A stretch of 64,000 nucleotides of DNA from Naegleria gruberi (taxonomy: Eukaryota). The position numbers were made by a program, and so were the translations under genes. The notes below the pieces were generated by a model. It saw only the letters and a list, made by a program, of their open reading frames with translations. It was not told where the DNA came from and did no database searches. The DNA is taken from NCBI GenBank assembly GCA_000004985.1, contig GG738853.1; one strand, given 5' to 3'. Positions 1,937-63,222 of the stretch are shown in pieces; position 1 is the first letter of the stretch; the number at the start of each line of letters is the position of its first letter.

Positions 1937-2875
1937 TTACAACTTCTTGCATGTCTTTCTCTTGATACAAATCTTCTTCAAGATTGACTTGCAACACTTC
2001 TTCTTTCCACCAACCAATTTGAATTTCTTACAAATCTTCTTTCCCTTAGAACGTTTCAAACACTTCTTATAATACTTCTTCTTGATACATCTTGGTGGAA
2101 TTGTAATTGACTTGGCACAATACTTCTTCTTATTATATTTGACACATTTGGAGAGAGTCTTCTTGTGCTTACAGAACTTGATGGTCTTATGCTTGGCACA
2201 GAAGAATTTCTTCTTAATGAGACAACACTTCTTGAAAGATTTTCTTTCCTTACAGTATTTAACCTTCTTATACTTGGCACATTTCTTAGCCCAGGAGACA
2301 ATCTTGCACTTTTTAACATATCTACATTTGGCGACCTTCTTATTGTAAGAATCAACAGTGTACTTGTCGCAGACCTTCTTCTTTTCACACTTCTTGATTG
2401 GAACCTTCTTGAATTTCTTGCAGACCTTCTTAACACCCTTCTTGACGCACTTGTTGACAATCTTGTGCTTGGCACAGAATTTCTTGAAACCCTTCTTGAC
2501 GCAAATCTTCTTAGTTCCATAAGAATCACAAACTTTCCAGTGCTTCTTCTTGGCACATCCAACAGTCTTGTATGCATGCAAGACACACTTCTTTGTTGCC
2601 TTACTATACTTGTCACACTTGGAATATTTCTTATGTTTGAGACATTTACCAGCACCGACAATGGCATATTGATCACAGACCTTCTTTTGACCAACGAGTT
2701 TGTGTTTCAAACACTTCTTAATCCACTTGTGCTTTAAACATTTTCTCTTGCAAACCTTTGGCTTGTGATACTTGTCAACTACTGGAGGTTTGGTTTGATA
2801 GCTGTCGCTTGCTTGAACTGAAAGGATTGCAATCAACAATAGAATTGCAATTGAAACGATTATATTTGTTTTCAT
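1937..2875 (-). CDS. Secreted Lys/Cys-rich low-complexity protein, paralog A (312 aa, signal peptide MKTNIIVSIAILLLIAILSVQA)
   Basis: Real ATG at 2875 and TAA at 1937. About 35% Lys and 13% Cys in a repeating C-x-K-x-K-K pattern. It is about 94% nt identical to the + strand gene at 62251..63222. Confidence 0.75.
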   Translation of the reverse strand: MKTNIIVSIAILLLIAILSVQASDSYQTKPPVVDKYHKPKVCKRKCLKHKWIKKCLKHKLVGQKKVCDQYAIVGAGKCLKHKKYSKCDKYSKATKKCVLHAYKTVGCAKKKHWKVCDSYGTKKICVKKGFKKFCAKHKIVNKCVKKGVKKVCKKFKKVPIKKCEKKKVCDKYTVDSYNKKVAKCRYVKKCKIVSWAKKCAKYKKVKYCKERKSFKKCCLIKKKFFCAKHKTIKFCKHKKTLSKCVKYNKKKYCAKSITIPPRCIKKKYYKKCLKRSKGKKICKKFKLVGGKKKCCKSILKKICIKRKTCKKL

Positions 2876-3136
2876 TTTTTCTGTTTTGTTGATCTTGTAG
2901 TTTCAGAAAACTGAAGACAATTTAAACCTTTCGAATACCATTTCATTAGGGATAAAACTCAAAATTAGAAACTTGTAAGGTTCCAAATATGGAAAGAAAT
3001 TTGATTCATAATTTGATAAAATTTGATCCCTCCATTCGCTGAATGAACCAAAGTTTACAATAATAAAGTGTTTTCTTGTAATAAACGTATTGTAAACTAT
3101 TAAAGTTCCTTGAGACATAACTCTCAGTTGAAAGTA

Positions 3137-4627
3137 TTAATATTTCAATTTTGTGATATGTTTCGTATTTAAGAGAGCATCTTTCCCTTCCTTATCCATG
3201 TATTCCGAGAAAATCCTAAGTTTTTTCAAGTTTTTCATTTTAGTGATTGCAATTATTCCTTCATCACCAAATTTGTTCTCATCAACTTGTAGTATAGTTA
3301 ATTGCATCATTTCACTAATGTACTTTGCACCTTCATTACCAAACTCATTGTTACGTGCATTTAGATCAGTCAATTTTTTCAACATACTAATCGATCTAAT
3401 ACCACGATCTCCAATGCTGTTGAACCCAACATCAAGTTTTGTTAAGTGTTCCATTCTGCTTAGTAATTCAGCTCCATTATCATTAATTTGATTTTCTGAA
3501 ATATCGAGCATTGTTAAATGTTTCAATTTACTTATAAACTCAAAGCCATCATTTCCAAGACCTACAACTCCAAATTCTAACTTTTTCAAATGGTCCATTT
3601 TACCAATCATTGAAAAACTCTCGATATTCAAATCATTTCCACCAATATTTAGTTTTGATAATTTTTTCATGTTGTAAATATCTTTCGCCACCTCCTCATC
3701 AACATCATTATAGCTAACATTTAAATAAATCAATTGTTGCAGGTCGCTTAAGTGTTTCACTCCTACATTAGATAAATAATTTACGGAAATATCAAGTTTG
3801 GTCAGTTGTTTCAATTGACCAATAGATTTAGCGCCTTCATCATCAATATTGTTTCCGCTTATATCAAGTTTAGTTAATTGCTTCAAATCTTCAATTTGGT
3901 TTGATGATGATTTTTCTAATTTGTTGTACTGCACTTTGAGTATTATTAATTGTTTCATCTCACATATAAATTTGAACCCTTTTGAACGAATAGAGTTGTG
4001 AGAAATATCGAGATTAGTCAATTGGCCCAATTTGCTAATAATTTTTGATCCTTCCTCACCCATTCGACAATATCTAACATCTAGTTCAGTCAATTGCTTT
4101 AATAAACCAATCGCCTCAACTCCTTTCATTATTGGGTTGTCACTAATATTGAGAATAGTTAATTGTTTAAATTTACCAATTGGTTCAATATCATTAAAAG
4201 TGTGTTTGCTCAATTTTAATTCAGTTAATTTTGGCATCAATCCCACTAACTTCCAAAATTCATCTATGTTTGAAATGTTCTTAAAGCTAACACTTCCAAT
4301 ACATGCAAGAAATTGATTTGTCATTATTTGTTCCAAATCTATTTCTTTTTTAAATTTGAGAGACAATTTTGAATATCTCATCACAACATTAAACCACTGT
4401 TTTGAAATTAGACAACAAGTCTTGAGAATGAAAACAACATCAATAAAAGATAATATTTCATAACAAATATCATCAATAAATAATTCTTGGTTGTCATCTA
4501 CACATATTTCCAATTACATATAATAGGAGTGGTGGATTTATTACTAACCTCTTCTTGATGTCGTCCTTTTCGAAAAGGGATGATAATCTGTCACATGATC
4601 CGAATCGTCCAATAATCGTTTGCTCAT
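3137..4627 (-). CDS. F-box / RNI-type leucine-rich-repeat protein, 2 exons: complement(4549..4627, 3137..4497), about 479 aa
   Basis: Exon 1 is ATG(4627) MSKRLLDDSDHVTDYHPFSKRTTSRR. Donor G|GTTAGT, 51-nt intron 4498..4548, acceptor tgtgtag. Exon 2 begins DDNQELFIDDICYEILSFIDVVFILKTCCLISKQWFNVV (F-box consensus), followed by more than 12 LRRs of RNI type (LxxLxxLDISxNxIxDEGAKxI). The ORF-track start for this entry is a TTG. Confidence 0.7.
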
Positions 4628-5297
4628 TTTTTTTAGATTTTTATTTAATCCTTCGAAGTTATTTTTTCAAAACATATAATTAAGGAAATATTGTAATATT
4701 GAGCCAACCACCTAGTGTACTAGTAAAAACAACCTCGATCAATAAATTGATTATTTCAAACTACTCTAACCTTCAATACTTGTTTGCCTTCTCTCTTATT
4801 TATTTACAAATATAGCAATTAATTATTATTAATACAACAATTTAAAAAAAATGAAAAACCTTAAAACCATCACCAGTACTTCGCTCACTTTTTCGTCATC
4901 ACTCTTGCAGAAGAAGCAACAGCAGCAAATGAATATCATGATTGGCTTGCAAAACAACCTCGGAACGAAGGTTACACTGCTCAAAACCAAATACTGTTGT
5001 TCCCTCCACACAGCTAGATTTGGAGCATTGAACGATAGCATCAATGCTGCTATTGCTGCTACTGAGCAAGATAATTTCAATCACAAGACACAATCATCTT
5101 TAATTTTCCATCAACAGGCTTATCATCATTCTCCGAAGAATTTTCCTACAGAAAAAAAATTCTCAAACTCTAATCGTCGTTATCATCGAGGACAAGTTGC
5201 CTTTGGATTGGATAATAGTAGTAGTGTAAATACCAAATATAATATTGGATTGATAAGTAATAGTAGTGGAGCATTTGTTAGTAGAAATTATTCAAAA

Positions 5298-7035
5298 ATG
5301 ATGGGAGAGAAGAGAAAAGTTGTCGGAGCTATTGATCAGGGAACTACTTCGACGAGATTTATGTTGTTCGATGCTAGTGATATGAAGGAAGTGGCCTCTT
5401 ATCAAATTTTACATGAAAATCATTTTCCTAAACCTGGATGGGTTGAACAGTAAGTTGTTGTGGAATGAATTTTTATTTGAAATGGTATAGAGATCCTATT
5501 GAAATTTATACAAATACACTTGAGTGCATGACTAATGCATGTGAAAAATTAGAAGGAGAGGATTATGAAATTATTGGTATTGGTGTGACTAATCAGAGAG
5601 AAACAACAGTGTTGTGGGATTCAGAAACTGGAAAACCACTTTGTAAATCAATTGGTATGTTTTATATTCTATAGAAATGATTAATGAAAATAGTTTGGAA
5701 CGATACAAGAACAAGAGATTTGGTCGATTCCATTTGTAAATCAAAAGCTGGAGGTGACTACTCCAAATTTAGAGAAGTTTGTGGTCTTCCACTTTCCACA
5801 TATTTCAGTGCAGTTAAACTGAGATGGATGATTGACCATTATGATGAGGTAAAAAAAGCAGTCGATAAAGGAACTTGTATGTTTGGAACTGTTGACAGTT
5901 GGTTGATTTGGGTATGTACTAATATTGGAATTTAATTTTGTAAACTTCATTTCAGAATTTAACAGGTGGCCTGAAGGGTGGTATTCACATTACAGATGTT
6001 ACCAATGCCAGTAGAACCATGTTAATGAACTTGAAGACACTTAAATGGGATGATGATATGCTCAATCTCTTTGAAATTCCATCAGGTGTTAAACTTCCAA
6101 CCATCAAGAGTAGTGCTGAAGTTTATTCAAGTATTTCTAAGGAAGTTGTACAAAATCACCCTCTTTTAAGTGGAGTAGCCATTTCTGGAGTAAGTACTCT
6201 AATATTCAAAGTATAATAATATTTATTTCATCATATTCATAATATACAGTGTATAGGAGATCAACAAAGTGCCACTATTGGCCAAAAGTGTTTTAAAATT
6301 GGAGATACAAAGAATACATATGGAACAGGATGTTTCTTACTTATGAATTGCGGACATGAAATTGTTAAATCCAATCACGGATTATTATCAACAGTTCAAT
6401 ATCAACTAGGACCAAATGCTGCTCCAGTCTATGCCTTGGAAGGTTCTGTTGCAGTTTGTGGATCTGGTATTTCATGGTTGGAACATAATTTAAAACTCAT
6501 AGAAAATCCAGCAGAATCTGAAACACTTGCCAGAACAGTTGAAGATACTGGAGGTGTAGTTTTTGTTCCTGCCTTCTCTGGATTATATTGTCCATATTGG
6601 AGATCTGATGCACGTGGTACTATTGTTGGTATTACTCACTATACAAACTCTGCCCACATTGTTAGAGCCATGTTAGAAGCTGTATGTTTCCAAACACAAG
6701 AAGTACTTGAATCCATGGTGAAAGATAGTGGACTTGCTGTTACAAACTTGATGGTTGATGGTGGTATGACCAAGAATCAATTATTAATGCAACTTCAATC
6801 TGATATCAGTAGAAAGAAAGTTAAAGTTCCATCCTATCCTGAAACAACAGTATTAGGAGCTGCAATTTGTGCTGCATTTGGCGTTGGACATTTCAAGGAA
6901 ATCAAGGATATTCCACCATCTCCAAAAGATAAGATGTTAATATTCACTCCTCACATCTCTGAGCAAGAAACTGAACTCAAAATGAAGAGATGGAAGAAGG
7001 CCATTGAAAAGTCATTAAATTGGCATGAAGAATAA
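5298..7035 (+). CDS. GK: Glycerol kinase (FGGY family), 5 exons: 5298..5449, 5491..5654, 5694..5911, 5956..6189, 6250..7035, about 517 aa
   Basis: Strong collinear similarity to eukaryotic glycerol kinase: [93 protein letters not shown]. Introns of 41, 39, 44 and 60 nt with GTAAGT/GTATGT donors keep the frame. The open frame also extends upstream to 4851 (149 extra residues, poly-Q/Ser-rich), so the true start is either 5298 ([10 protein letters not shown]) or further upstream. Confidence 0.85.
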
Positions 7036-7938: not shown

Positions 7939-8421
7939 GGATTACTATTGCATTGTGTCGCTTTCAAGTGCTTTTTAGTGTTGGAGGTCGATTTCTTTGG
8001 CGAAAGGCCTTTTCATTTTACCATTCTGATTCAGTGCGTCAATCAATGAGGATGAATTCAATACCTTATGAAATATTTGAAAGAAATTGCAGAGAATGAG
8101 TGGGAATAGTTCAGATTTTGAAGAAATATTGTTGGATGGTCATTTGTAAATATTCCATTTTTGAAACTTTTGCAATCTGAATATATCAAAAAAGAAGGTT
8201 GTTTAAAATTGGTTTTTGTGAACACTATAAAAATGAGAAAGTAGACGAAAAGTTTCCAAAGTTCGAGATCTCGGGAGATAAAAGTATTTTTGATTAATCC
8301 AATATGCATTATTTCACATCTTCTAGCCAGTACAATTACGTCGATCTATTTGTCAATCTTCAAATTGAAAACTGAAGATGCCAACAATAAACATCATATT
8401 GTGAATAAAATCAAAAGGAAT

Positions 8422-8494
8422 CGCCCACCGTGGGGGTCGAACCCACGACCACAAGGTTAAGAGCCTTGCGCTCTACCGACTGAGCTAGACGGGC
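8422..8494 (-). tRNA. tRNA-Lys(CUU): tRNA-Lys (anticodon CUU), 73 nt
   Basis: Reverse complement reads GCCCGTCTAGCTCAGTCGGTAGAGCGCAAGGCTCTTAACCTTGTGGTCGTGGGTTCGACCCCCACGGTGGGCG. It has a canonical cloverleaf, anticodon loop CTCTTAA, and an oligo-T run immediately 3' on the coding strand. Confidence 0.9.
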
Positions 8495-8586
8495 AGATAT
8501 TAAGGATTTTATGTCACACTAATCATTTTTCCCTTACAGATAATCTACCATTTCTTAATTATATAAATGAGGGAAAATATGTTTAT

Positions 8587-10065
8587 TTACAAAAGATTGA
8601 ACATGAGATACACCACAATGGTAAGAAGAATATACACAGGACCATTGTTGGTAAAAACACTATTTGACTCACTAACAAGAGCTCTTACATCTAATGTATT
8701 GTTTTCATCCATGTAGCCATCAAATTCCAAAACCATTTGATCCATTAAAGAATCAACATTTACAGATCTGGCCATCATTGTGGATAAACTAGCATCTGTA
8801 GTTACTCCATTCTTATCCACAACAATAGAAATTGGACAAGGCATATCGAGAATGCAACCACATTTCAATCCTTCCCAACTGTTCACAAATCTCTGAGCTA
8901 GGAATGTGAATAAATTATTGGCTACTCCAGTGTCAGGACTTGCATATTTCAGAGTGATAGACTTGTCGAGGAATATTCTGGCAGGTGCCACAACTGCGTA
9001 ATGTTTACAATAGAGACGAGTGGAAGCAAATGCAACACTGGAAACTTGTGGTTGAAAAACAGCAGCTCTGTACAAGTTGAGTTTTTCAAGGTTTGCTTGA
9101 TCATTGCTTCTTACCATTGGATTTCCTTTTGGAAGAAGAGCAATCGGTGCTTTTTGTTTCAATTTAGCATGAATCTCATCCAATGCCAATGACTGAGTCA
9201 ATTGACCATTATTGGCCAAATCAGGGGCCATGTATGGAGTGCAATTTAGAGCACGTGCCATTGCAACAGCTAACAATCTATTATCAGAACCATTTACCAA
9301 AGTTTGAGTTTGAGCAGTTCCTCCAAGGGCTTTCAAATTAGCTGCAGTATTTTGACAAGTTCTACCTGCCAATGTCTTGTTTGTACTAATGATATAGGAT
9401 GTAACAACGTTATCTGATTGATCCATGTCAACAATACCAAAATCTCTGACAGTCATACATGATTTTCCATCAAGTGCAGTGCCAAGTGCTGGAACTGGTG
9501 GATTAAAGAAGGAACCAGGATCATTGGTTGCTTTTTCCTTAATAATTTGACTGATTGATGTTTGAACAGCTTCAAAAAATTGCTTTCCATTGCATGAGGC
9601 GAATTGACCAAAAATATCATTTGCTCCATCAATACCATTGACACAATTACCTTGAGCAAGTGAATTACTGGAATCAATTAAAGTAAGAGAACCAGCATTT
9701 GTACCAAACCACAATCCAACAATTGCTGTTTTTGGAAAGACAGGAACAGTTGGTTTGATTGCTGGTTGAGTATTTTGAGTAATTACCAAAGGATTATAAA
9801 TCATGAAGGATCTTGTCTCTGGAACGAAAATAACACCCTCAACAAATGATTGTTGATCAGCAGCAGTCATGACACAAGGGCCATTGGCAGGATTGACAGC
9901 TCTCAAAATATAAGGAGTTGCCAATCCTTGAGGAGTGAGTGGATTTGGAGGAACAATAAGAGCACAATCAGGATTAGCACCCTTTACAATTCTGATATAA
10001 TGTACAAGAATAATGGCAAGACAAATACTTGTCTTGAGTGAGTTGGAAACGATCATGTTGAGCAT
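8587..10065 (-). CDS. Secreted Gly/Asn/Thr/Ala-rich protein with an N-terminal signal peptide and a C-terminal hydrophobic GPI-anchor-like tail (about 492 aa), family unknown
   Basis: First ATG in a good context is at 10065 (MLNMIVSNSLKTSICLAIILVHYIRIVKG is signal-like). The ORF-track start at 10215 is upstream read-through. The C-terminus ...SNSVFTNNGPVYILLTIVVYLMFNLL* is a short polar stretch followed by a hydrophobic end, as in a GPI signal. GC content is higher than in neighbouring genes. Confidence 0.6.
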   Translation of the reverse strand: MLNMIVSNSLKTSICLAIILVHYIRIVKGANPDCALIVPPNPLTPQGLATPYILRAVNPANGPCVMTAADQQSFVEGVIFVPETRSFMIYNPLVITQNTQPAIKPTVPVFPKTAIVGLWFGTNAGSLTLIDSSNSLAQGNCVNGIDGANDIFGQFASCNGKQFFEAVQTSISQIIKEKATNDPGSFFNPPVPALGTALDGKSCMTVRDFGIVDMDQSDNVVTSYIISTNKTLAGRTCQNTAANLKALGGTAQTQTLVNGSDNRLLAVAMARALNCTPYMAPDLANNGQLTQSLALDEIHAKLKQKAPIALLPKGNPMVRSNDQANLEKLNLYRAAVFQPQVSSVAFASTRLYCKHYAVVAPARIFLDKSITLKYASPDTGVANNLFTFLAQRFVNSWEGLKCGCILDMPCPISIVVDKNGVTTDASLSTMMARSVNVDSLMDQMVLEFDGYMDENNTLDVRALVSESNSVFTNNGPVYILLTIVVYLMFNLL

Positions 10066-10438
10066 TTGTGAATGGTATTCAATGGTTTGATTTGAATAAC
10101 AACAGTTTGTTTTTGTTTTTTTTTGATATTGTTCACTAGTCCAATAAAGTGCCGACAATTTAACAGAAATTGCACAAATCATGTATGTTATCAAAAAGGA
10201 AAAGTAGGTTCTCATAAAATTGAATGAAATAAAGGATGAAAGGTTGAGAGATATACGAATATTAACGAATGAGGAGTTTGGATAATGATCTATCGCGAAA
10301 AACTTTCTCTATCTTTATAATTGATTGATTTGGTACACACAGATCCATCATAAATCATTGCAAGTAATAAAAACCTAATTTTCATGTTGAATCTGCAATA
10401 AAACCGAAGATGCAAAAGAGAAAATAAAAAACATGAAT

Positions 10439-10511
10439 CGCCCACCGTGGGGGTCGAACCCACGACCACAAGGTTAAGAGCCTTGCGCTCTACCGACTGA
10501 GCTAGACGGGC
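10439..10511 (-). tRNA. tRNA-Lys(CUU): tRNA-Lys (anticodon CUU), second identical copy
   Basis: 73/73 identity to the 8422..8494 copy, in the same orientation, and followed by an oligo-T run. Only about 5 nt of flank on each side is shared between the copies. Confidence 0.9.
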
Positions 10512-15493: not shown

Positions 15494-15574
15494 GCAGGGG
15501 TTCCCGAGTGGTCAAAGGGGGTAGACTCAAGTTCTACTGCGCAAGCTTCGTGGGTTCAAATCCCTCCTTCTGCA
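15494..15574 (+). tRNA. tRNA-Leu(CAA): tRNA-Leu (anticodon CAA), class II with a long variable arm, 81 nt
   Basis: GCAGGGGTTCCCGAGTGGTCAAAGGGGGTAGACTCAAGTTCTAC...GTGGGTTCAAATCCCTCCTTCTGCA. It has a 3-bp D stem, anticodon loop CTCAAGT, and TTTT at 15577-15580. There is one U-U mismatch in the T stem (positions 50/64). Confidence 0.7.
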
Positions 15575-15785
15575 ACTTTTGCTTCTTTATCCCTTAATCT
15601 TTTTGATAAGACGACCATTTTCAAATATTTATTGTTAGTATGATGTCTAGTTTCTATGGTAAAATTTTTGTGCAACTCCAAATAGACTCTATAAAGATAA
15701 TCAATAAAGATAACGCTGACCTCAAATATTCCAGCTGAAATACCTTGAAGATTTGAAGAGCTACTAAAACATTTAATTTCCAAAA

Positions 15786-15903
15786 GACTACAGCACCACA
15801 GGTTCCCAAGTTGTCTCCAACCTCAGTACTGATGTGGCTCGACGATGCTTAACTTCTCAAATCGGACGGGATGAGGTGCATTCATCGTGATATGGCCGTA
15901 GCC
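15786..15903 (-). rRNA. 5S rRNA: 5S ribosomal RNA gene (118 nt), dispersed copy 1
   Basis: Reverse complement GGCTACGGCCATATCACGATGAATGCACCTCATCCCGTCCGATTTGAGAAGTTAAGCATCGTCGAGCCACATCAGTACTGAGGTTGGAGACAACTTGGGAACCTGTGGTGCTGTAGTC matches the universal 5S consensus (box A/C region, loop E). A T-run terminator follows (plus-strand caaaa at 15781-15785). Confidence 0.85.
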
Positions 15904-16224
15904 AATCATTATCCTAAAACCTTGAATATAACCATCACCAAAGAACCACATATACTATTTTTCTGACTAATGTCATTTTGAATATTAAAGTTAAGCCAAT
16001 TCAAATGCCAAATGATATATAAAAGAGAACTACACCAAAATTATCCCCACTATGGATTGATTTTACTATTGGTGTACCCCATCCTCCCTACTCAACGATG
16101 TTATTATGTTATCAAGCACAAATACAACACAATCTCCAACAGTAACTACCATCAATAAGGAGTTTCGTTTTTTAATTAGAATTTTGGTGTGTTGAATGAG
16201 GAAAGTATCAGTTAGTGTATTGGT

Positions 16225-38116: not shown

Positions 38117-39922
38117 TTAGTTTGAGACTACGTCATCAATCTTCAAAAGCATTCTAACTAACTCGGTAGATAAAGCGATAGCACTCAATGTTGTCAGTGT
38201 TGGTTGGATAACATTTTCTTCAACCATATCTGAAATCAAACCCTTCTTAACATTGATACCGGCATTCTTTTCACCGTGCATATGTCTATTTTTGAGTTCA
38301 GTAACAATCTTAATTGGTGACAGACCTGCGTTTTCAGCAAGAGTGGTTGGAATGACTTCCAAACTTTCACCGTATTCACGAACACAATATTGAATAGCAC
38401 CTCTGAGAGTCTTTGAGTATTCAACAAGTCCTAGAGAAATTTCAGTTTCTGGAGCAGAACCACCAGCAATGATACTCTTCTTCTTAACCAAACTTCTAAC
38501 AACGCACAAAGCATCATGGAGGGATCTTTCAGCTTCATCGAGCATCAACTTGTTTGAAGATCTAACCAAACAAGTGACAGTCTTACCTTGAGATGGAATA
38601 CCAGTAATCTTGACAATTCTACCATCACCAGTGTTAACTTCTTCAACTAATCCAGCAGATCCGAGCTTTTCCTTCTTGAATGAATCAATAGAAGAAATTG
38701 GCTTACAGTTCAAAGTCTTTGAAATGAATTCAACATCCTTTCTATCAATATCTTGAATGACCATAATACCCATCTTGGCCAAAAAGTGCAATGACATATC
38801 AGTGGTGGCATCTCTCAAAATAGACTTTTGAATCAAGAGAACATTACATCCTTCCTTCTTGATTTGCTTACAGAGATTGAGCAAATAAGCTCTTTCTTCT
38901 CTCAAAATTCTATCAATTTGTGTATAGTCAGTAATGACAACATTGTTTTCCATATCAGTCTTTGGTGGTGACAATTGGAATTGAATCAAACCAATCTTGG
39001 CATCCTTGATAGAAGTTGGACCACCAGCAGACTTTCTAGTACCTTGATCCAAAACCAAACCTTCAATCAATTCAGTTTCTTCAAGAAGACCTCCCAACTT
39101 TTTAACAATCTTGATATCGTTCAAATCTACATTGGATGCATCCTTTGATTCAACAACACGGAGAACAGCATCAACAGCTAATGGAGCCAAAACATCGGCA
39201 TATTGGTAAACAACCTTTGAACTCAAGGAAGTCTTAGCAGACTTAATCATATTTTCACGATCAGTTAAATCCACTTTAGTAGACATATTATCGAGAATTT
39301 CTTCAGCTTTATCCACACACAATTTGAAAGCATCAGAAATTGTAGTTGGGTGAATACCTCTATCGAGCAAGTTTTGACAAGCAGCAAGCAAAGCTCCAGC
39401 CATAACGACAACGGTAGTAGTACCATCACCAGCTTCAATATCTTGTGATTTTGACAAGGAAACTAACATTTTAGCAGCTGGGTGAGTTGGCTTCATCTTA
39501 TCCAAAATTGTTGCACCATCGTTGGTAATAATGACTTCATCTTTAGGGAGGACAATCATCTTATCCATACCCTTTGGTCCTAAACTAGTTCTGACGGAAT
39601 CAGCCAAAGCTATAATAATGTTGATAATAATGCAAAGTTTTCGGATTTGGATGATGATAATGTTGTTGTTGTTGTTAGTGATGATGCAATTCAATGATGA
39701 TGAATAATATCAAATAGATAAGACAAGTTAATCCATCAAACAATCAATCCACAAAAATACAAATGTATAATTAGTTTCAAAGTTATGATTTTGATTCTTA
39801 CCCTTGGCGGCTTCAATATTTGAGTAACGGACATCCTTTCCTCTTTCCTTTTCATTGACATTGGTTTCACCTTTACCTCTTTGGAAGTTTTGTGTTGGAG
39901 TGGCACCTTGTGTTTGAGACAT
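38117..39922 (-). CDS. CCT4: T-complex protein 1 (CCT/TRiC) subunit delta, 2 exons: complement(39802..39922, 38117..39609), about 537 aa
   Basis: Near-collinear identity to CCT4: [92 protein letters not shown]. Exon 1 MSQTQGAT...[14 protein letters not shown] (compare CCT4 RDKDKPAQIRFSNISAAK) splices across a 192-nt intron (G|GTAAGA ... ttattatag). Confidence 0.85.
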
Positions 39923-45487: not shown

Positions 45488-45559
45488 GGGACCATGGTCT
45501 AGTGGTATGATTCTCGCTTTGGGTGCGAGAGGCCGTGGGTTCGATTCCCACTGGTCCCC
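45488..45559 (+). tRNA. tRNA-Pro(UGG): tRNA-Pro (anticodon UGG), 72 nt
   Basis: GGGACCATGGTCTAGTGGTATGATTCTCGCTTTGGGTGCGAGAGGCCGTGGGTTCGATTCCCACTGGTCCCC. The D-arm and anticodon arm are identical to canonical eukaryotic tRNA-Pro, with anticodon loop TTTGGGT. Confidence 0.85.
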
Positions 45560-45716
45560 TTTCCTTTCATGTAACTTTGAAAATTCCAACTTTAATATGT
45601 TTTGCTTATTGGAATTTTGTATAAAATTCGTGTTATTGCCTTAGTTCAATAAATTTAGTTTAAGGTTTAAATTGAGTTTTTTGGGTACCTCCAATAAAAT
45701 TAATTGTAAAACAATC

Positions 45717-45782
45717 CTCCCATGCCGGGAATTGACCCTCCTGGGTGAAAGCCAGGTATCCTAGCCATTGGACTACACGGGA
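45717..45782 (-). pseudogene. tRNA-Glu(UUC) pseudogene: 66 nt, with a 6-nt deletion removing the 5' half of the T stem
   Basis: Identical to the intact tRNA-Glu at 63313..63384 except that ACCCGG is missing (GGGAATTGA-CCCTCCTGG against GGGAATTGAACCCGGACCTCCTGG). About 45 bp of 5' flank, including a TATA-like element, is also shared. Confidence 0.6.
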
Positions 45783-45809
45783 TCTCATTCACAATGAGAA
45801 TATTCTCAT

Positions 45810-45822
45810 TTTATAGATAAAT
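45810..45822 (-). promoter_or_regulatory. TATA-like upstream element (TTTATCTATAAAA on the tRNA strand) about 30-40 nt 5' of the tRNA-Glu pseudogene
   Basis: The same element (TTTTATCTATGAAA) sits at the same distance upstream of the intact tRNA-Glu at 63414..63424. The conserved 5' flank suggests an upstream Pol III promoter element. Confidence 0.3.
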
Positions 45823-45991
45823 GCTGAAAACTCTCAGATTTTAGAAAACCTCGAGTTCCCCTCTCAAAATAAGACTCAAAAGCCTTAAAAGAATGGTTAT
45901 ACGATCTTGGTACCTGGTAATAAGTACCATCACTGATATTTATCGAAGTGATGAAAATTTGGGTGTACCCAAACGCCTTAATAAAACAAAA

Positions 45992-46109
45992 GACTACAGC
46001 ACCACAGGTTCCCAAGTTGTCTCCAACCTCAGTACTGATGTGGCTCGACGATGCTTAACTTCTCAAATCGGACGGGATGAGGTGCATTCATCGTGATATG
46101 GCCGTAGCC
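45992..46109 (-). rRNA. 5S rRNA: 5S ribosomal RNA gene (118 nt), dispersed copy 2
   Basis: 118/118 identical to the copy at 15786..15903. Its flanking sequence is unrelated, and a T-run terminator follows. Confidence 0.85.
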
Positions 46110-46202
46110 ATTGATAATATCAAAATCTTAATACTGAATAAGAAACCGAATCTTGTACATTAAACATTAATAAGAATAGCGAACTGTTAATTTACGTAAG
46201 CA

Positions 46203-46268
46203 AAAAAGGAGTAGCAAATCTAGGTTTCGATCCTAGGACCTATGGGTTATGAGCCCATCGCGCTGCGC
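46203..46268 (-). pseudogene. Initiator-type tRNA-Met (CAU)-like gene with a truncated D-arm (66 nt); probable pseudogene
   Basis: Reverse complement AGCAAATTGGCGCAGCGCGATGGGCTCATAACCCATAGGTCCTAGGATCGAAACCTAGATTTGCTA. Initiator hallmarks are present: a perfect 7-bp acceptor stem, a GGG/CCC anticodon stem, the CAU anticodon, and an A54/A60 T-loop (GATCGAAAC). But only 3 nt lie between the D-stem halves, so about 6 nt of the D-loop are missing. Confidence 0.5.
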
Positions 46269-46860
46269 CAATTTGCTTTTCATTTACCTATTAAAATTTA
46301 GTCCAACTTTCAAGCGGTTTAACATGGCCTTTGAGACTTGATCATATTTCTGATTTGTAAGTGTTTCTATATCCATAGTTATCCAATTACATTATTCAAC
46401 ATTCTATCAATCCTCTCTAATCCTAAACAATCACTTCGAATATTAGTTGACTGCCAAGCTCGAATTTGATTCTTAGTCAACAAAATCAATTTGACCGGTT
46501 TAAAAAGTATTTTCCGGTCCTCTCTTCCACCAATCACTCTCTTTACTGACTCGAAAGACGACGTACCTCACAGTTCATACAGTCAAAGACTGTAGCGGGA
46601 CAGTCGCCATATTCCTGGCAGGCTTCCCGTCTAGTAAAATTAATTGAAAAGTTTCAAATTGTTGTAAATCACAACTACACTGTAAATTTGATTCTTTATT
46701 GTTTTAAAGTTGTGCATTTGAAACTCGTTCTTTACAAAGAAGGAATTCTAATATTAAGGTAAAACTAACTTTAAATAATATTTTCAAATACTATACACTT
46801 AATTAAATTTGAAAATATTATTTATATAAATAATAATGAAAAAAAATAAACAATTGGTAT

Positions 46861-49644: not shown

Positions 49645-51483
49645 TTATCTCATATTTCCCATACCACCCATCATTTGTTGTTGTCTTTGTTGATCGTGTT
49701 GATTTTGTTCACTTTCTGGATTCTTGACAGTTTCATCAACTGACAGAACGAGAGTAGCAGCTTCGATCGAGGAAACGAGAGCATTTCTCTTAATGAGAGA
49801 TGGTTCCCAAACAAAGTTGTTAAAATTATCAGCAACATCTTCAGTCTTCATGTCAACACCATACCAAACACCATCCTTGTCTTGATGCTTCTTTCTCAGC
49901 TTATTCAAAATATTTGTAGCATCAAAACCAGCATTTTCAGATAATTGTCTTGGAATAATTTCAAGAGCTTTAGCGAAGGCCAAAATGATTAATTGAGATT
50001 TACCCTTAATACTTCTAGCATGGCTCTTCAAGTGAGCACTGATATCCATTTCAACAGCACCACCACCAGCAACAATTGATGTATTCTTCAAAGTTCTTCT
50101 GACGACCATGATAGCATCGTGCAATGATCTTTCAGCTTCAGCAATGAATTGTTCAGCACCACCACGCAAAACAACAGTAGCAGTCTTGGAGTGAGCACAT
50201 TCAGTGAAAATGTTAAATCTTTCATTACCAACTTGTCTTTCTTCAAAGAGTCCACAAACACCCAAATCAGAATCATTAACCTTTGAGACAGTAGTCAAAA
50301 TCTTAGAACCAGTAGCCTTTGTGACACGGAGCAAATCATCTTCAGCAACACGACCAGCACAGAAAAGTCCTCTATCAGCAAAGTATTGAGTAGCAAGATC
50401 ACCAATGGCCTTCTTGGAAAGGACAATCTTAGCACCACTAGCAACAATCTTTTCCAATTTATCATAAATAATCTTCCATTCAGCATCAACAATAGATTGA
50501 TATTGTTCTGGGTTATTCAACTTGATTTCAGCGTTATCCTTTTCAGCCTTCAATTCAAGTTCAATATTGAGAGTAATAATTTTAGGAGAAATAAACTTCT
50601 TAGGTTGTTGTTCAAAACCAGCATATGAGAAACTCTTCTTGAAAGCAACACCCTTAACGAGGAAAGATTCTTGCATAGAACCACCTGGAACTTGTTTAAC
50701 ACCAATTAAATCAATATCCAAATCATCATCCAATGAAAGAACAGAATCAACAACCATTTCAGAGAAGTGATCGGATTCAATACCACCAATCAATTTAGAT
50801 GAAAGTGATGTTCTGGCAATCTTTCTAAGAAGGTCTCTAGTCTTGTTATTGTCGGTTTTATCAATTTGTACAGCAATTTCTTCCAATCTCTTCAATGCAA
50901 TTCTAAGAGCTTCTCTATAGGCTTTAATGATGAGTTGTGGATGGACACCTTCTTGTATAAATTGTTTGGCTTCCTTCAAGAATTCACCTGCCAAAATTGT
51001 TGTTGTTGTTGTACCATCACCAACTTCACTATCTTGTGATTTAGCAATATCTACTAAAAGTTTAGCTGCTGGATGGACAACATCCAACAATTTAAGAATA
51101 GTGGCACCGTCGTTTGAGATTGTAGCACGACGACCATCGTGTATAAGTTTATCCATTCCTCTAGGACCAAGAGTGGTCTTAATAACATCAACAATAGCAT
51201 AACAAGCGTCAATGTTTGATAAGAGTTGTCCAACACCTTGTGAGGTATCTGTACCATCCTTCAAGAGGATTATGCTAGGTTGCTATAATAATATTCCAAT
51301 ATTATCAATTTGTTGTTGTTGTATATCGAATGATGATGATGAATCCAACAGTTGTTTTCAAAAGAGTTCAAGAAAGTCATCAAAAGTTTTACATTAAAGT
51401 GAGTGTATAAAATCCGTAACATTAATAGGATGAATATTTGTTAACAACTACTCATTCTTCTAACATACCATCATATGAGACAT
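49645..51483 (-). CDS. CCT7: T-complex protein 1 (CCT/TRiC) subunit eta, 2 exons: complement(51469..51483, 49645..51282), about 550 aa
   Basis: Collinear with CCT7: [149 protein letters not shown] 5-codon exon 1 (MSHMM, ATG at 51483, donor ATG|GTATGT) joins [12 protein letters not shown] (compare CCT7 MMPTPVILLKEGTD) across a 186-nt intron. Confidence 0.8.
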
Positions 51484-56065: not shown

Positions 56066-56121
56066 ACCATCAATCATTTTGACCTTTAATTTAAAATCAA
56101 AAAAAAAGAAACTGAAAAAGA

Positions 56122-57423: not shown

Positions 57424-57548
57424 GTGAAAATTCGCAATTTATACTTTTTCATAGATTTTTCATAGAGAATGAATCTATGTTATTAATGAGGTAGAAAATC
57501 TCAATAATAAAAAATCCAATTTTTCAATTATTTTTTCTTTAAAAAAAA

Positions 57549-58127: not shown

Positions 58128-58352
58128 TATTGATTTAATGAGTTTGATTATACTTTGAAAATCCAGTGGAAGTTTCCGTTCAAGAAGATCAAAATTCTTG
58201 ACAGACCTTGTAGCTATTTCAAGTCGAATGTGATCGATACAGATGATAATTATCAATTTTATTAAGGAATGGTTGACAACTCTTTAACAGAAAATAAATA
58301 ATTAGTAAGCTAGGACCTTAGTGCTTCATATTTTTTGATCATCTTTCAAGAA

Positions 58353-58423
58353 GCATTAGTAGTGTAACGGTATCATACCAGCCTTCCAAGCTGGTGACCC
58401 GGGTTCGACTCCCGGCTAATGCA
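58353..58423 (+). tRNA. tRNA-Gly(UCC): tRNA-Gly (anticodon UCC), 71 nt
   Basis: GCATTAGTAGTGTAACGGTATCATACCAGCCTTCCAAGCTGGTGACCCGGGTTCGACTCCCGGCTAATGCA. Anticodon loop CTTCCAA. Close to canonical eukaryotic tRNA-Gly-UCC. T-run at 58431-58434. Confidence 0.85.
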
Positions 58424-58616
58424 ATTCAATTTTACAGTTGATAGAAATAAGTTTTTCTCTTTTTTCATTAATTAAAACCTTAAACAGCAGTTCAAAATGA
58501 AATTAATAAAGTGCAAATTGAATAAATTGCTATTATTTGATCCTTTGAAAATTGTAACTGCTCAGAACCACTTGTAGATTCCAAAGTTCATTAAATAATT
58601 AACAGAATTGACTTGT

Positions 58617-58652
58617 TGAGATTTCTTGTTCTCTAACCAACAAGAAATCTCA
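58617..58652. repeat. Perfect 14-bp inverted repeat / hairpin (TGAGATTTCTTGTT - 8-nt loop - AACAAGAAATCTCA) midway between the convergent tRNA-Gly genes
   Basis: Read directly from the sequence. The stem has 14/14 complementarity. Confidence 0.6.
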
Positions 58653-59027
58653 GCTACTTAATCTTCACAAAAGAAGAATAAGAAGAATAAGAAAATTATG
58701 AAGGAATTTGTGAGAAAAAACATGTAAACAAATGGTTTCATCTATTGACGAGGATGAGTATGAACAATATTCAATCAATTCTAAATTCTAAATATTTAAT
58801 AAATTGTTTAACGAAATGGATTGATTGTCTGTTGATGGTTTTTGGAGTGCATGAGAGGATTTACACCAGCTGAGCTCTATCTATCTCTTGGATTATTAAG
58901 GCGAGGAATCTACTAACCAATACCCTCAGAAATGGTTTCCAACAACTTGTAAAAAGCACTAATCAATCTTCAAGAAACGGTGCCATTCTTAAAGACATGT
59001 TGATATCAGCTAAACTAAAATTGAATT

Positions 59028-59098
59028 GCATTAGCCGGGAGTCGAACCCGGGTCACCAGCTTGGAAGGCTGGTATGATACCGTTACACTACTAATGCT
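59028..59098 (-). tRNA. tRNA-Gly(UCC): tRNA-Gly (anticodon UCC), inverted identical copy
   Basis: Exact reverse complement of the 58353..58423 gene. About 28 bp of 5' flank (CATATTTTTTGATCATCTT(T/A)CAAGAA) and about 15 bp of 3' flank are duplicated as well. Confidence 0.85.
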
Positions 59099-60229
59099 TC
59101 TTGTAAGATGATCAAAAAATATGAACCACCAAGTGGTAGCCATGATAATTTTCATGGAAACAATTATATTTTTTGGTAATTAATTCGATATCCAATACTT
59201 GAACATAGAAATGCGTATGGAACTAATAATTATAATTAATGTTTCAATAAAATATACTTGCTTCCGTATAACATGTCAGATTCCTTTGTTGTCACAGATC
59301 TAACATGTAAAGAAAGATACAAGCAGAGCTGAAAATTACCTTTTTTGTTGTTCTTTCAAAGCGTACAAATGAAATTGAAACTTCATGGGTGAAAAAATTT
59401 TACTGTTTTGCATTCATTCTTTGTTCTAACAGTAAAGATTCCAATAGGTAAATTAACATGTCAATATTGTTGCAATGTGTTGTTATCACCTGGCATAACA
59501 ATATCTGATATTAAATCCATTCTTATGACCATGTTCGTGATGTAAGCTTCAAATGTCATTGTACAAAATTAATCTTGTCATTCCAATTCCAACCATTGAA
59601 CCATATCATGTAAGTTTTAGTTGATTCACAACCTCCCAAAACGAAAGAAATCTCCAAATAATGTTCCATCGCCATTGACAAAAATAGAGCTATTTCGAAG
59701 AGCTTGAAAGATTACTCTCATACAGTTTCGAATAGGATTGCTGCACAGCAAAACTATTGCACAACAAACTTCTTTGCAAAAAAGTATGACTAATAAGCAC
59801 ACAACCAACAACTCTTCTGATTCTCAATTATTTTCCTCATCAATCCCACCTATTCACTTCATTCCACCTACTACTACTGTCATCATTAATACAACTAATG
59901 TAATAACAAACGCAGCGAATGTGAATAATAATAATATGGTAAATGTTGATTTGCTTCTTTCTAATGAGAGTGCCACCAGAAACATTGGTAATTTAGTTCC
60001 GCATGAATTAAATAATTTTTTTCCAATGTGATGATTAATTATGATGACCAATGGAGTCCAGCCTTGCCAATCACATCTGAAAGCCTTGAAGCATACAGAC
60101 AAATGTAAATGTGTATATTATAGGATGCGTGAGAATATCGTACGCATATGTTTCTGCTTTTTTGAATACTAATAATATTCATCAAATGTTAAATTTCTTC
60201 TCGAGATGATGGAAGATAAAACTCCCTTT

Positions 60230-60405
60230 GTAATATTACTCTCTCAACATGTACTTCTAATAAAGTAAACCAAATTACTTTAAACTCTTCAATGTAGTAG
60301 ATCCCAAACATCTTGTTGTACAACTTTTAATATTACACACTCTCTCAACATGTATTTCTAATAAAGTAAAAAACCAAATTACTTTAAACTCTTCAATGTA
60401 GTAGA
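60230..60405. repeat. Two direct copies of an approximately 73-bp unit (TAATATTAC..CTCTCAACATGTA(C/T)TTCTAATAAAGTAAA..CCAAATTACTTTAAACTCTTCAATGTAGTAGA) about 99 bp apart
   Basis: Seen directly in intergenic DNA. Copies differ by one substitution and a 3-nt indel. Confidence 0.6.
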
Positions 60406-60774
60406 GGTAATAGTTAATTACTGGCATTCAACTTATAGTAGTAGATGAATGGTATTATGATGATACTGGAGAGGGTTAGAATCGGTTAGTAGAGAGAATT
60501 GCATTTTGAATAGATTCTATCAAAAATGATAACATAACATGTTTACATTTTGTTTGAATTTTTTTGTCGTCCCAAAACGTCCTGAAAAATATTTTAATGA
60601 AACGTTTACAATTGAATTTCTGTTCCAATTTGGACTATGTGTTTCCAAATCTATTAATAAAATCATATTGTAAAAATCTAGAATACTGTATTGTAATAGT
60701 ACTCTTAACAAATTCCTTAACTTTCTTTAAATAGAGTGAAATAAAAAGATGAATTAAGATTTTTCTAAAAAAAA

Positions 60775-61432
60775 ATGCTCAACAATTCATCATCAGCATT
60801 GTCATCATTAAATTTATCAAGGCTTCTTTTAATAATAGGATTTGCAAGTTTTTATTGCTTGTTTGTTTATTGTGATTTTCCCGTTGATGTTAAAGAATTA
60901 AATATTAAAAATATATATGCAGATGATTCAGTGGATTGTAACGAATTTGATTATTATTATTTCAATGTTCCGAAGGATTTTAAAGTACAACGATTTTATT
61001 TATCATTCCGTTTTACAAATGATGATGAAGATAAGAGTGATAAACCTGCTCTAGCAATTTATTTTAAAATAGGAAAATTAGCAAATGAAACTGATTATGA
61101 TGCAATGACAAATTCACCTGATATTCCAATTGCTTTTGATAAAATTCCACCTGATACTAATTGTTATTTAACTATTGCAGGTAAAGGAATGTGTAAACAA
61201 GGATTTGAAACTACGAATCATTATTATTTTAAAGGATATTTGGATAAACAAGGACCTATTCCAGAGTAAGTTTTTTTTAATGAGAATTAATGAAAAATTG
61301 AAATGTGAAAGTTGGGCATTATTTGTAATTATTATTGGAGGTTCAATTATACTTTGCATTTCTTTGGTTGCTTGTGTATCTGCCTATAGATATTATCAAT
61401 TTAAGAGAAGACATTATGAAGTTTTGGAATAA
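60775..61432 (+). CDS. Type I membrane protein: signal peptide, about 140-aa ectodomain, single TM, short basic cytoplasmic tail. 2 exons: 60775..61265, 61312..61432, about 203 aa
   Basis: ATG at 60775 (signal-like MLNNSSSALSSLNLSRLLLIIGFASFYCLFVYC). Donor GA|GTAAGT, 46-nt intron, acceptor gtgaaag. This joins to DWALFVIIIGGSIILCISLVACVSAYRYYQFKRRHYEVLE*. Family unknown. Confidence 0.5.
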
Positions 61433-62250
61433 GAATTATTGAAAAATATAATTGAGGATTCTAAATGAGAGCGAGCTGTTGTTTACAAGATGTGATGTTG
61501 TGAAACTAAAAGAGTAAAGTTTATTGACATTAAGCCAACATTATTATTACATACTTTGTTGATCTACCATCAGTTGCAAATTGTAAAAAATCGTAGTGGA
61601 AAATAGTCTGCAGAAACACAAAAAAAAACGAACGTACGAATATATTGATGAACATTCTTACAACACCATCAGTAACGTGGAGATAAATAATAGTTTAAAC
61701 ACCAAACATAAGAAGGGCAATAAGTAAACAACTGGTGGTCCAAAACACCCATTTTTTTATCTGACTAAAGGGGAGATGGATGCAATTAGTAAAGCTGTGG
61801 ATAGTGAAAAGCAGAAGTTGTATCAACAAACAACATTTTAAAATGTAACAACGATAGAAGGATCCACAAGTTTATCAATCATTAAAAGAAATCATCCAAA
61901 TCTCTGTCCTCCCTTTCTTGTTCTTAATCACTATTTTTTTACAAACGAGTTTAGTCTAGACTGCAAAAACCAGACTGCCAATTGGTCACAAAACATTTAA
62001 CAGTATTCTCTCATGAAATTCGAATACATGAATTAAATGAAATGGTTCAGAAAGATATGAATGAAATGATTGATAATGAGAATACTTTGGAAAGCTGAGT
62101 TGATATTTGAATAGTAAATTGAATCAGTTTTCTATCCAAATTTGGAACCTTACATCCAACTATTTTCAGCTTGTCCCAAATGAAAAACAATTCGAAATGG
62201 TTTAAATTAGCACCATCTGGTTGAACTATCCAATCCAACAAAAACAAAAA

Positions 62251-63222
62251 ATGAAAGCAAATCTAATCTTTTCAATTGCAATTCTACTCTTGCTTGCAAT
62301 CCTCTCAGTTCAAGCAAGTGATAGCTATCAAACTAAACCTCCAGTTGTCGTAGTTGACAAGTATCACAAGCCAAAGGTTTGTAAGAGAAAATGCTTAAAG
62401 CATAAGTGGATTAAGAAGTGTTTGAAACATAAACTCGTTGGTCAAAAGAAGGTCTGTGATCAATATGCAATTGTCGGTGCTGGCAAATGTCTCAAACATA
62501 AGAAATATTCCAAATGTGACAAGTACAGTAAGCCAACAAAGAAGTGTGTCTTGCATGCATACAAGATTGTTGGATGTGCCAAGAAGAAGTACTGGAAAGT
62601 TTGCGATTCTTATGGAACTAAGAAGATTTGCATCAAGAAGGGTTTCAAGAAGTTCTGTGCCAAGTACAAGATTATCAACAAGTGTTTCAAGAAGGGTTTC
62701 AAGAAGGTCTGTAAGAAATTCAAGAAGGTTCCAATCAAGAAGTGTGAAAAGAAGAAGATCTGTGACAAGTACACTGTTGATTCTTACAATAAGAAGGTTG
62801 CCAAATGTAGATATGTTAAAAAGTGCAAGATTGTCTCCTGGGCAAAGAAATGTGCCAAGTATAAGAAGGTTAAATACTGTAAGGAAAGAAAATCTTTCAA
62901 GAAGTGTTGTCTCATTAAGAAGAAATTCTTCTGTGCCAAGCATAAGACCATCAAGTTCTGTAAACACAAGAAGACTCTCTCCAAATGTGTCAAATATAAC
63001 AAGAAGAAGTATTGTGCCAAGTCAATTGTCATTCCACCAAGATGTATCAAGAAGAAGTATTATAAGAAGTGTGTGAAACGTTCAAAGGGAAAGAAGATTT
63101 GTAAGAAATTCAAATTAGTTGGTGGAAAGAAGAAGTGTTGCAAGTCAATTAAGAAGAAGATTTGTATCAAGAGAAAGACATGTAAGAAGCCAACAAAACC
63201 AATCGTCAAACCATCCTTGTAA
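62251..63222 (+). CDS. Secreted Lys/Cys-rich low-complexity protein, paralog B (323 aa)
   Basis: ATG at 62251 (MKANLIFSIAILLLLAILSVQA). The ORF-track start at 62221 is a TTG. About 94% nt identity to the complement(1937..2875) gene, including about 100 bp of promoter (TTCGAAA(T)GGTTTAAATT...CAACAAAA(A)CA(G)AAAAATG). The C-terminus differs (KKPTKPIVKPSL* against KKL*). Confidence 0.75.
   Translation: MKANLIFSIAILLLLAILSVQASDSYQTKPPVVVVDKYHKPKVCKRKCLKHKWIKKCLKHKLVGQKKVCDQYAIVGAGKCLKHKKYSKCDKYSKPTKKCVLHAYKIVGCAKKKYWKVCDSYGTKKICIKKGFKKFCAKYKIINKCFKKGFKKVCKKFKKVPIKKCEKKKICDKYTVDSYNKKVAKCRYVKKCKIVSWAKKCAKYKKVKYCKERKSFKKCCLIKKKFFCAKHKTIKFCKHKKTLSKCVKYNKKKYCAKSIVIPPRCIKKKYYKKCVKRSKGKKICKKFKLVGGKKKCCKSIKKKICIKRKTCKKPTKPIVKPSL

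Follow-up and report, generated by a model that had tools for sequence, protein, structure and literature searches.

The stretch of DNA analysed here, 64,000 nucleotides of contig GG738853.1 from Naegleria gruberi (assembly GCA_000004985.1) and hereafter the window, carries near its two ends a pair of near-identical, intronless genes in inverted orientation. Copy A and copy B lie where an earlier note, made from the letters alone, had placed them (open reading frames (ORFs) at complement(1937..2875) and 62251..63222), and encode lysine- and cysteine-rich proteins with a signal-peptide-like N-terminus. Judged by sequence similarity, their product is a member of a small, unnamed family centred on Naegleria, and modelling suggests that these proteins fold into one very long two-stranded ribbon with about 15 evenly spaced disulfide rungs. 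The coordinates of the features are collected in Table 1.

Copies A and B are two intact paralogues, both under purifying selection. Over 312 aligned codons they share 95.0% of their nucleotides and 94.9% of their amino acids, and the differences comprise 28 synonymous and 19 non-synonymous changes. The synonymous rate (dS) is 0.187 and the non-synonymous rate (dN) 0.025, which gives a ratio dN/dS (omega) of 0.135 (codon alignment; Fisher P = 7e-11), and 32/32 cysteines are kept between the copies. The earlier note, which had already proposed purifying selection, extended an identity of about 94% from the coding sequence (CDS) to the promoter; the figure holds for the former, but not for the latter, where identity is 65–80% as far as about −140 and falls to background beyond. 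A 6-nucleotide indel that it reported is present as described, as two valine codons found in copy B only. The last residues, taken in that note to be divergent, do differ, although the difference amounts to one clean 27-nucleotide in-frame indel. This is best described as a deletion in copy A, because the N. gruberi homologue P0002 (see below) has a tail like that of copy B. The ORF of copy B also extends 5' of the ATG, to a TTG at 62221.

On the 3' side the similarity ends directly at the stop codon, the downstream flanks are unrelated, and a tRNA-Glu(TTC) gene (63313-63384, minus strand) adjoins the 3' end of copy B with no counterpart beside copy A, all of which agrees with the first description of the locus. 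A repeat finder run over the whole window recovered two pairs of inverted arms, one of 840 nucleotides (1943-2782 and 62350-63189, 96% identical) and one of 125 nucleotides (2778-2902 and 62224-62348, 84%), about 965 nucleotides in sum, and no further long inverted repeats joining both window ends. The duplication thus covers about 1.1 kb, namely the intronless CDS together with about 140 bp of promoter, and the 59 kb separating the copies are unique sequence. Inverted copies near both window ends, with several frames open on both strands, could also be read as marking the limits of a large segmental duplication in inverted orientation (an option raised in the earlier note), as an assembly artefact, or as non-coding AAG-rich repeats with accidental ORFs. 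However, since only about 1.1 kb is common and both the flanks and the intervening 59 kb are unique, the pair is a dispersed inverted gene duplicate rather than the arms of a large palindrome, and the 47 substitutions and two in-frame indels that separate the copies argue against a collapsed or duplicated assembly. The single stop-free frame, with an omega of 0.12, and the protein homologues in three Naegleria species speak against accidental ORFs. The repeat, substitution, homologue and frame evidence refutes this group of explanations, which keeps next to no credibility.

The coding frame was sought among the six frames of the 840-nucleotide ungapped block. The sense frame, as annotated, is the sole stop-free one and has the lowest omega (0.116); the remaining five contain 5–35 stops, with omega values of 0.22–3.6. 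Among the latter is the +1 frame of the sense strand, which shows 6 stops between the copies and an omega of 0.69. Four overlapping ORFs had been listed in the earlier note as antisense. Two of them, a Leu/Phe-rich pair, are indeed antisense, but the other two, an Arg/Ser-rich pair, lie in the +1 frame of the sense strand. All four are compositional artefacts: the alternative frames remain open because AAG-rich DNA offers no stop triplets in those frames. A gene on the antisense strand, which the note had kept as an alternative, was rejected, in view of the stops that interrupt the antisense frames between the copies and of their omega of 0.22–3.6. In the environmental homologues P0011 and P0019, some automatic gene calls continue into such alternative frames.

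The mature protein consists of 36% lysine, close to the 35% first estimated, and of 10.6–11.0% cysteine, less than the 13% first estimated, together with 5–6% tyrosine, and its isoelectric point (pI) is about 10.1. In copy B, 113 Lys and Arg residues face 9 Asp and Glu residues among 301 mature residues. The mature region, of 290–301 residues, is continuous and holds no repeated cleavage motifs. It is preceded in both copies by an N-terminus that, by inspection, begins with MK and a 16-residue hydrophobic core, ends with VQA before the predicted cleavage site, and continues with SD; residues 3-18 of copy B form a helix in the structural model described below, and an equivalent hydrophobic N-terminus was found by inspection in every full-length family member. 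This N-terminus looks like the signal peptide reported earlier. Lysine is mainly encoded by AAG, as also reported, with AAG:AAA ratios of 83:22 in copy A and 83:25 in copy B (77–79% AAG). The codon preferences of both genes (AAG 0.78, TTC 0.91–1.0, GAG 0, CAG 0) recur in well-expressed genes of the window (CCT subunits, clathrin light chain) and are absent from most of its remaining ORFs; this likeness is an indication, from codon bias, that A and B may be highly expressed.

When the protein is cut after each cysteine, about 30 units result, 14 of which are exactly 9 residues long. Their consensus is [A/K/L/I/V]-K-[K/Y/H]-[K/G]-x-x-K-[K/V/F/Y/I]-C, with one terminal cysteine each, and the autocorrelation of cysteine positions has its maxima at lags 9, 18, 27 and 36. 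The pattern C-x-K(H/Y)KK was described as periodic in the earlier note, but the strict 9-residue cysteine period and its palindromic layout were overlooked there. Self-BLASTP of copy B, with and without composition correction, detected no internal duplication. D-x-Y-(K/P) motifs are found at both ends of the predicted rod, namely at the N-terminus (DSY, DKY) and at the tip (DKYTVDSY), and the N. fowleri homologue holds (I/V)D(S/T)YKP repeats in its C-terminus.

No family could be named for this product in the earlier note, and the databases of known families bear this out: neither copy A nor copy B matched any Pfam family at E ≤ 0.01, and a sequence profile search of the PDB yielded 0 matches at E ≤ 10. 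At E ≤ 10, Pfam likewise gave 0 families for copy B and the homologues P0003, P0007, P0008, P0020 and P0014, and two sub-threshold chance matches only for P0021. The product is not an orphan, however. Only 17 matches turned up when 1.84 billion representative proteins were searched with a profile, and a second profile search added three; HMMER E-values were 1e-139 for P0003, 5e-21 for P0007 from N. lovaniensis, and 1e-20 for P0008 from N. fowleri. The named members, all annotated as 'hypothetical', are NAEGRDRAFT_67458, NAEGRDRAFT_66117, NAEGRDRAFT_57793 and NAEGRDRAFT_76199 from N. gruberi, FDP41_004030 from N. fowleri, and C9374_009239 from N. lovaniensis; the rest come from short environmental contigs. 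Identities of the homologues range from 25 to 77%, and about 27 cysteine columns are invariant in 7 full-length members of 27–51% mutual identity. A scan of metagenome contigs with the family alignment returned no relatives.

Family members resemble A and B in the signal-peptide-like N-terminus, the basic pI (9.2–10.8 in every member), the 9-residue cysteine spacing (the modal value in every member), the palindromic ladder and the D-x-Y motifs. On the other hand, A and B have the highest lysine content of the family (33–36%, compared to 13–25% in the remaining members) and the shortest hairpin tip. They also lack the extra N-terminal Cys/Pro-rich repeat region of a long subfamily, formed by NAEGRDRAFT_57793 (P0144), P0143, P0015 and P0021, whose proteins of 707–742 residues hold about 380 residues of this repeat (roughly C-P-x5-8-C-x15-25-C-x4-C) before the ladder module. 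The repeat region has no Pfam match.

As annotated products, copies A and B are not on record, and both are apparently missing from the reference protein set of N. gruberi. With copy B as query, two N. gruberi proteins were retrieved. P0003 (NAEGRDRAFT_67458) is a paralogue of 46% identity, whereas P0002 (NAEGRDRAFT_76199, on a 39.8-kb contig) has an N-terminus with SAM and PB1 domains fused to the last 140 or so residues, the C-terminal half, of a protein closely matching copy B. Because the SAM/PB1 part lies outside the window, P0002 marks a third locus, and NAEGRDRAFT_76199 is probably a mis-annotated chimera that includes part of a third near-identical copy; N. gruberi has at least three of them (A, B and P0002). 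In the Logan assembly of SRR32051688, an environmental orthologue (L002, 290-1267) matches copy B from end to end at 74.5% identity and contains one in-frame stop (…SYKIN*CSKKK…), for which a pseudogene, read-through or an assembly error are conceivable.

The structure of copy B was modelled with AlphaFold2 (AF2) on a 17-sequence alignment. The model is all-beta, with a mean predicted local distance difference test (pLDDT) of 79.9 and values of at least 90 at 106 residues. Its strands span residues 48-63, 66-75, 80-92 and 96-171 in the N-terminal half and 186-261, 265-277, 281-290 and 293-308 in the C-terminal half, separated by a stretch of low confidence (172-185, with 175-182 of low pLDDT and not in strand), and the two sets mirror each other at i+j of about 356–357. 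Because uninterrupted strands of 76 residues can be satisfied solely by each other, the model amounts to a single giant antiparallel hairpin with about 124 residues per strand.

Independently of AF2, the arrangement of the cysteines suggests the same fold. In copy B they are palindromic around a 15-residue gap (171|186) and form 15 in-register pairs, at i+j of 353–357. The spacings read outward from the gap are 6, 11, 9, 9, 9, 9, 9, 10, 10, 9, 11, 12, 9 and 4 on the N-side, and 6, 9, 9, 9, 9, 9, 9, 9, 10, 9, 10, 12, 9 and 6 on the C-side, a mirror match with P = 7e-5 when the order of the spacings is permuted. The ladder score of copy B (13.8, against 8.4 ± 1.2 for the null) was reached by 0/150 shuffles, and so was that of the N. 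fowleri homologue P0008 (12.8, against 6.6–8.0). Ladders of 13–16 in-register rungs were obtained for 10/10 members analysed, with 14–15 rungs in three Naegleria species. Only two cysteines of copy B fall off the ladder, both of them second members of CC doublets; off-ladder cysteines number 2–4 in the short-subfamily proteins B, P0003, P0008 and P0142, where they are usually the second of a CC and vary in position, and 7–9 in more divergent members.

Changes between homologues also come in mirrored pairs. In P0003, two segments and their predicted partners are shorter than in copy B: the equivalents of residues 57-69 and 284-296 each go from 12 to 9, while 69-80 goes from 11 to 9 and its partner (274-284) from 10 to 9; moreover, P0003 has no equivalent of Cys44 or of Cys311, which are predicted to form the outermost rung of copy B. 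Irregular units bearing Gly or Pro stand opposite each other (LVGQKK and LVGGKK, SKPTKK and SIVIPPR), at the places where the strands of the AF2 model are interrupted. The biggest indels of the family lie at the predicted tip, where the gap is 15 residues in copy B and P0003 and 37–41 in N. fowleri, N. lovaniensis and NAEGRDRAFT_66117. At the level of the family sequences, the 9-residue period, the mirror symmetry and the mirrored indels are established, and together with the model they suggest a ribbon of two very long strands clamped by about 15 evenly spaced disulfides.

Several observations weigh against this ribbon. The fold is a prediction, with a predicted template modelling score (pTM) of 0.26 for the 17-sequence model, and the ladder scores come from a procedure that, like the choice of doublet cysteines, was fitted to the data. 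The symmetry is partly trivial, because most spacings equal 9 and the signal comes from about six irregular ones. In the homologues P0007 and P0020, the mature cysteines are odd in number (signal peptide cut by inspection). No literature was found that names any family member or gives expression, localisation or biochemical data on one. Other such points favour instead a secreted and largely disordered polycation, with cysteines that are mainly intermolecular or partner-bound, forming a gel or coacervate, and with the AlphaFold hairpin as an artefact of the repeats. A first AF2 run, on a 4-sequence alignment, reached a pLDDT of 40 and was uninformative; the composition is of extremely low complexity; the residue classes facing each other across the strands do not prefer the proposed register over shifted ones; and Foldseek found no solved structure resembling the hairpin model. 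Its near-misses, very long beta-hairpins of pore-forming toxins and phage tails, were rejected as homologues (E > 0.1, TM score < 0.12). Nevertheless, random intermolecular linking does not predict mirrored cysteine spacings, mirrored indels or mirrored cysteine losses, and it leaves the large indels exactly at the centre of symmetry unexplained, so that a disordered gel appears improbable. The mirror symmetry of the cysteines is also what an antiparallel, domain-swapped dimer would show.

Upstream of the genes, the aligned region of about 140 bp contains a conserved box, TTCCAWATTTGGRA, within the block TTCCA(T/A)ATTTGG(A/G)A..TACA, which includes a CArG-like palindrome, CC(A/T)6GG, about 110 bp 5' of the ATG in both A and B. 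An equivalent block is found about 80 bp before the ATG of the 74%-identical orthologue L002 (at about 205-214), whose upstream region is otherwise unalignable, while no CArG-like box precedes the N. fowleri homologue. Matches to CC(A/T)6GG number 7 in the window, against 4.8 expected. On this sequence conservation, the block is a candidate cis-regulatory element.

Taken together, A and B are two dispersed, inverted and functional paralogues that would encode a secreted, basic cystine-ladder rod with a structural or cross-linking role in a wall or matrix, an account in which we have middling confidence. The stiff polycationic rod would be exported in bulk through the secretory pathway. Its N-terminal half is predicted to pair antiparallel with its C-terminal half into a single beta-ribbon, whose strands of about 124 residues each would be clamped by about 15 putative cross-strand disulfides, one per 9 residues; at about 0.33 nm per residue, the predicted length is about 40 nm. 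Such a lysine-rich rod may bind polyanionic extracellular material, and the spare off-ladder cysteines, and possibly tyrosines, would link rods covalently, with the D-x-Y-(K/P) motifs perhaps taking part. The site would be a wall, a coat or an adhesive matrix, most likely the cyst wall or its plugs. We know of no characterised cyst-wall or matrix proteins of Naegleria, and a literature search found none; literature on Naegleria encystment transcriptomes, cyst-wall proteomics, Lys/Cys-rich proteins and cystine-ladder ribbons, including the supplements of two papers, held nothing relevant.

An antimicrobial or bacteria-binding effector could have an equal ladder architecture, as a giant cationic beta-hairpin, secreted or delivered to the phagosome, that would bind the anionic envelopes of bacteria or make them permeable. 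Naegleria is a bacterivore, and cationic hairpins braced by cystines are known in tachyplesin, protegrin and theta-defensin; the product is polycationic (pI about 10), it is predicted to form a beta-hairpin with cross-strand cysteine pairs, and its genes exist in several copies and have a codon bias like that of abundant products. The analyses run here do not separate this role from one in a wall or matrix, which is a further point against the structural account. However, the mature protein, of about 35 kDa, exceeds all known hairpin antimicrobial peptides in length by a factor of about 15 and has no evident processing sites to free short peptides, and the odd 9-residue period swaps faces with each unit, so a clear amphipathic face is absent. 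A dN/dS of 0.13 and the conserved number of rungs also suit a scaffold more than an arms-race effector, and an effector of this kind seems unlikely. Considering the purifying selection, the 13–16 rungs kept, the multiple copies and the expression-type codon bias, the product would most likely serve in bulk as a structural or cross-linking part of a polyanionic wall or matrix. Of the antimicrobial-like, matrix-like and spore-coat-like roles that the earlier note found conceivable, a matrix or wall one is thus favoured here, on indirect evidence.

Two other identities were considered and rejected. Metallothioneins are cytosolic proteins without signal peptide, with about 30% cysteine clustered as C-x-C, C-x-x-C or C-C, whereas here cysteine amounts to 11% at 9-residue spacing, with two CC doublets only, behind a signal-peptide-like N-terminus. 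A histone-like nuclear protein was also discarded.

If the structural account is taken further, the family might represent a new architecture, which we propose only tentatively: a core-less, two-stranded 'rope ladder' of about 40 nm, with about 15 rungs at a 9-residue pitch, that would act as a polycationic strut or ruler and would be joined, end to end or side by side, into an extracellular lattice forming the cyst wall or its plugs, through its spare cysteines and terminal D-x-Y motifs, with the CArG-like box controlling the N. gruberi copies.

Apart from these genes, the window has about 32% GC and is ordinary Naegleria nuclear DNA. An ORF at 49645-51261 (minus strand) encodes CCT-eta, with 100% identity to an N. 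gruberi protein, 90% to N. lovaniensis and 83% to Willaertia; a different CCT (TCP-1) subunit gene lies at 38117-39694, on the same strand and 10 kb apart. Its other genes, of eukaryotic housekeeping type, encode myosin I, a NatB subunit, ALG11, CNOT11 and clathrin light chain, as well as Kelch, EGF, LRR and DUF4116 proteins. Two dispersed 5S rRNA genes (15785-15903 and 45991-46109) are enclosed in a 143-nucleotide repeat that is 95% identical. The first belongs to a cluster (15494-15923) in which it adjoins tRNA-Leu(CAA), and the second to a cluster (45488-46277) with tRNA-Pro(TGG), a weak tRNA-like match and tRNA-Met; by their gene content, these groupings look like small RNA polymerase III gene clusters. 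A tRNA-Glu-like element at 45717-45782 is probably degenerate (38.9 bits with Rfam, missed by ARAGORN), and the stretch 45717-45821 is 93% identical over 85 nucleotides, including about 40 nucleotides of flank, to 63313-63423, which holds the tRNA-Glu beside copy B. Two tRNA-Lys(CTT) genes (8403-8494 and 10420-10511), in direct orientation and 2 kb apart, flank an ORF at 8587-10215; this tRNA reads AAG, the dominant lysine codon of the Lys-rich genes, which is probably a coincidence. Finally, two tRNA-Gly(TCC) genes (58317-58434 and 59016-59133) form an inverted pair 581 nucleotides apart.

Table 1. Features of copies A and B in the window; cells describing strands, tip and signal peptide refer to predictions.
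Feature	Position	Strand	Details	Basis
Copy A CDS	1937..2875	−	312 aa + stop, intronless	ORF; end-to-end alignment with N. gruberi paralogue P0003
Copy B CDS	62251..63222	+	323 aa + stop from ATG, intronless	ORF
Copy A predicted signal peptide	2810..2875	−	residues 1-22, MKTNIIVSIAILLLIAILSVQA then SD	inspection
Copy B predicted signal peptide	62251..62316	+	residues 1-22	inspection; AF2 helix 3-18
Copy A predicted N-terminal strand	2369..2752	−	residues 42-169, 15 Cys	transferred from B by alignment
Copy A predicted hairpin tip	2327..2368	−	residues 170-183, DKYTVDSYNKKVAK	gap Cys169-Cys184
Copy A predicted C-terminal strand	1949..2326	−	residues 184-309, 17 Cys, two CC doublets	
Copy B predicted N-terminal strand	62380..62763	+	residues 44-171, 15 Cys	AF2 strands, Cys positions
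Copy B predicted hairpin tip	62764..62805	+	residues 172-185	AF2, family indels
Copy B predicted C-terminal strand	62806..63183	+	residues 186-311, 17 Cys, CC at 219/220 and 296/297	AF2
6-nucleotide indel	62344-62349	+	GTTGTC (Val-Val), in B only, absent from A	
27-nucleotide in-frame segment	63190..63216	+	PTKPIVKPS, in B and N. gruberi P0002, deleted in A	
Copy A upstream aligned region	2876..3015	−	about 140 bp, 65-80% identity; block TTCCATATTTGGAACCTTACA; CC(A/T)6GG at 2983-2992	
Copy B upstream aligned region	62111..62250	+	about 140 bp, 65-80% identity; block ATCCAAATTTGGAACCTTACA; CC(A/T)6GG at 62136-62145	
+1-frame ORF in copy A	2056..2694	−	Arg/Ser-rich, sense strand; compositional artefact	
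+1-frame ORF in copy B	62438..63076	+	twin of 2056..2694, sense strand; compositional artefact	
Antisense ORF in copy A	2165..2737	+	Leu/Phe-rich; compositional artefact	
Antisense ORF in copy B	62395..62967	−	twin of 2165..2737; compositional artefact	

Among known systems, the closest in design are the cationic beta-hairpin peptides (tachyplesin, protegrin, arenicin and the theta-defensins), which likewise combine antiparallel strands, cross-strand disulfides and positive charge, the hairpin and its disulfides being predictions in the present case. Those peptides, of 17–21 residues with 1–3 disulfides, are Arg-rich, amphipathic and processed from precursors. The products of A and B, in contrast, would have about 250 structured residues and about 15 rungs, an enlargement of about 15-fold; they are Lys-rich, share no sequence similarity with the peptides, and have a continuous mature region of 290–301 residues instead of a short mature peptide (under about 25 residues). 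Antifreeze-type beta-solenoids such as that of Tenebrio molitor also join short tandem units and a periodic cysteine ladder in an elongated all-beta rod, built in that protein from 12-residue coils with a cysteine every 6 residues.

As regards the likely function, the nearest parallels are protist wall proteins—such as the Cryptosporidium oocyst wall proteins, EcmA and EcmB and the spore-coat proteins of Dictyostelium, and Giardia CWP2 with its basic tail—and the Lys/Cys-rich Balbiani-ring silk proteins of Chironomus. All of them are Cys-periodic and several are basic, and they are secreted in bulk, to become part of a wall or fibre outside the cell through covalent cross-links. They differ from A and B, for which a wall site is a proposal, in their units of about 24–80 residues with several cysteines each and in their folds, and the Pfam models of oocyst wall repeats, EGF/Fol-type spore-coat repeats and chitin-binding domains gave no match even at E ≤ 10. 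The A/B product is a member of none of these hairpin-peptide, antifreeze or protist-wall families. If its predicted architecture is true, no other natural cystine ladder would come near it in length, and it would be a core-less, highly charged rod whose length is set by the number of 9-residue units, of interest for fold space and as a template for the design of polycationic nanorods. The family also points to an abundant, genus-wide secreted component of Naegleria, present in the pathogen N. fowleri as well.

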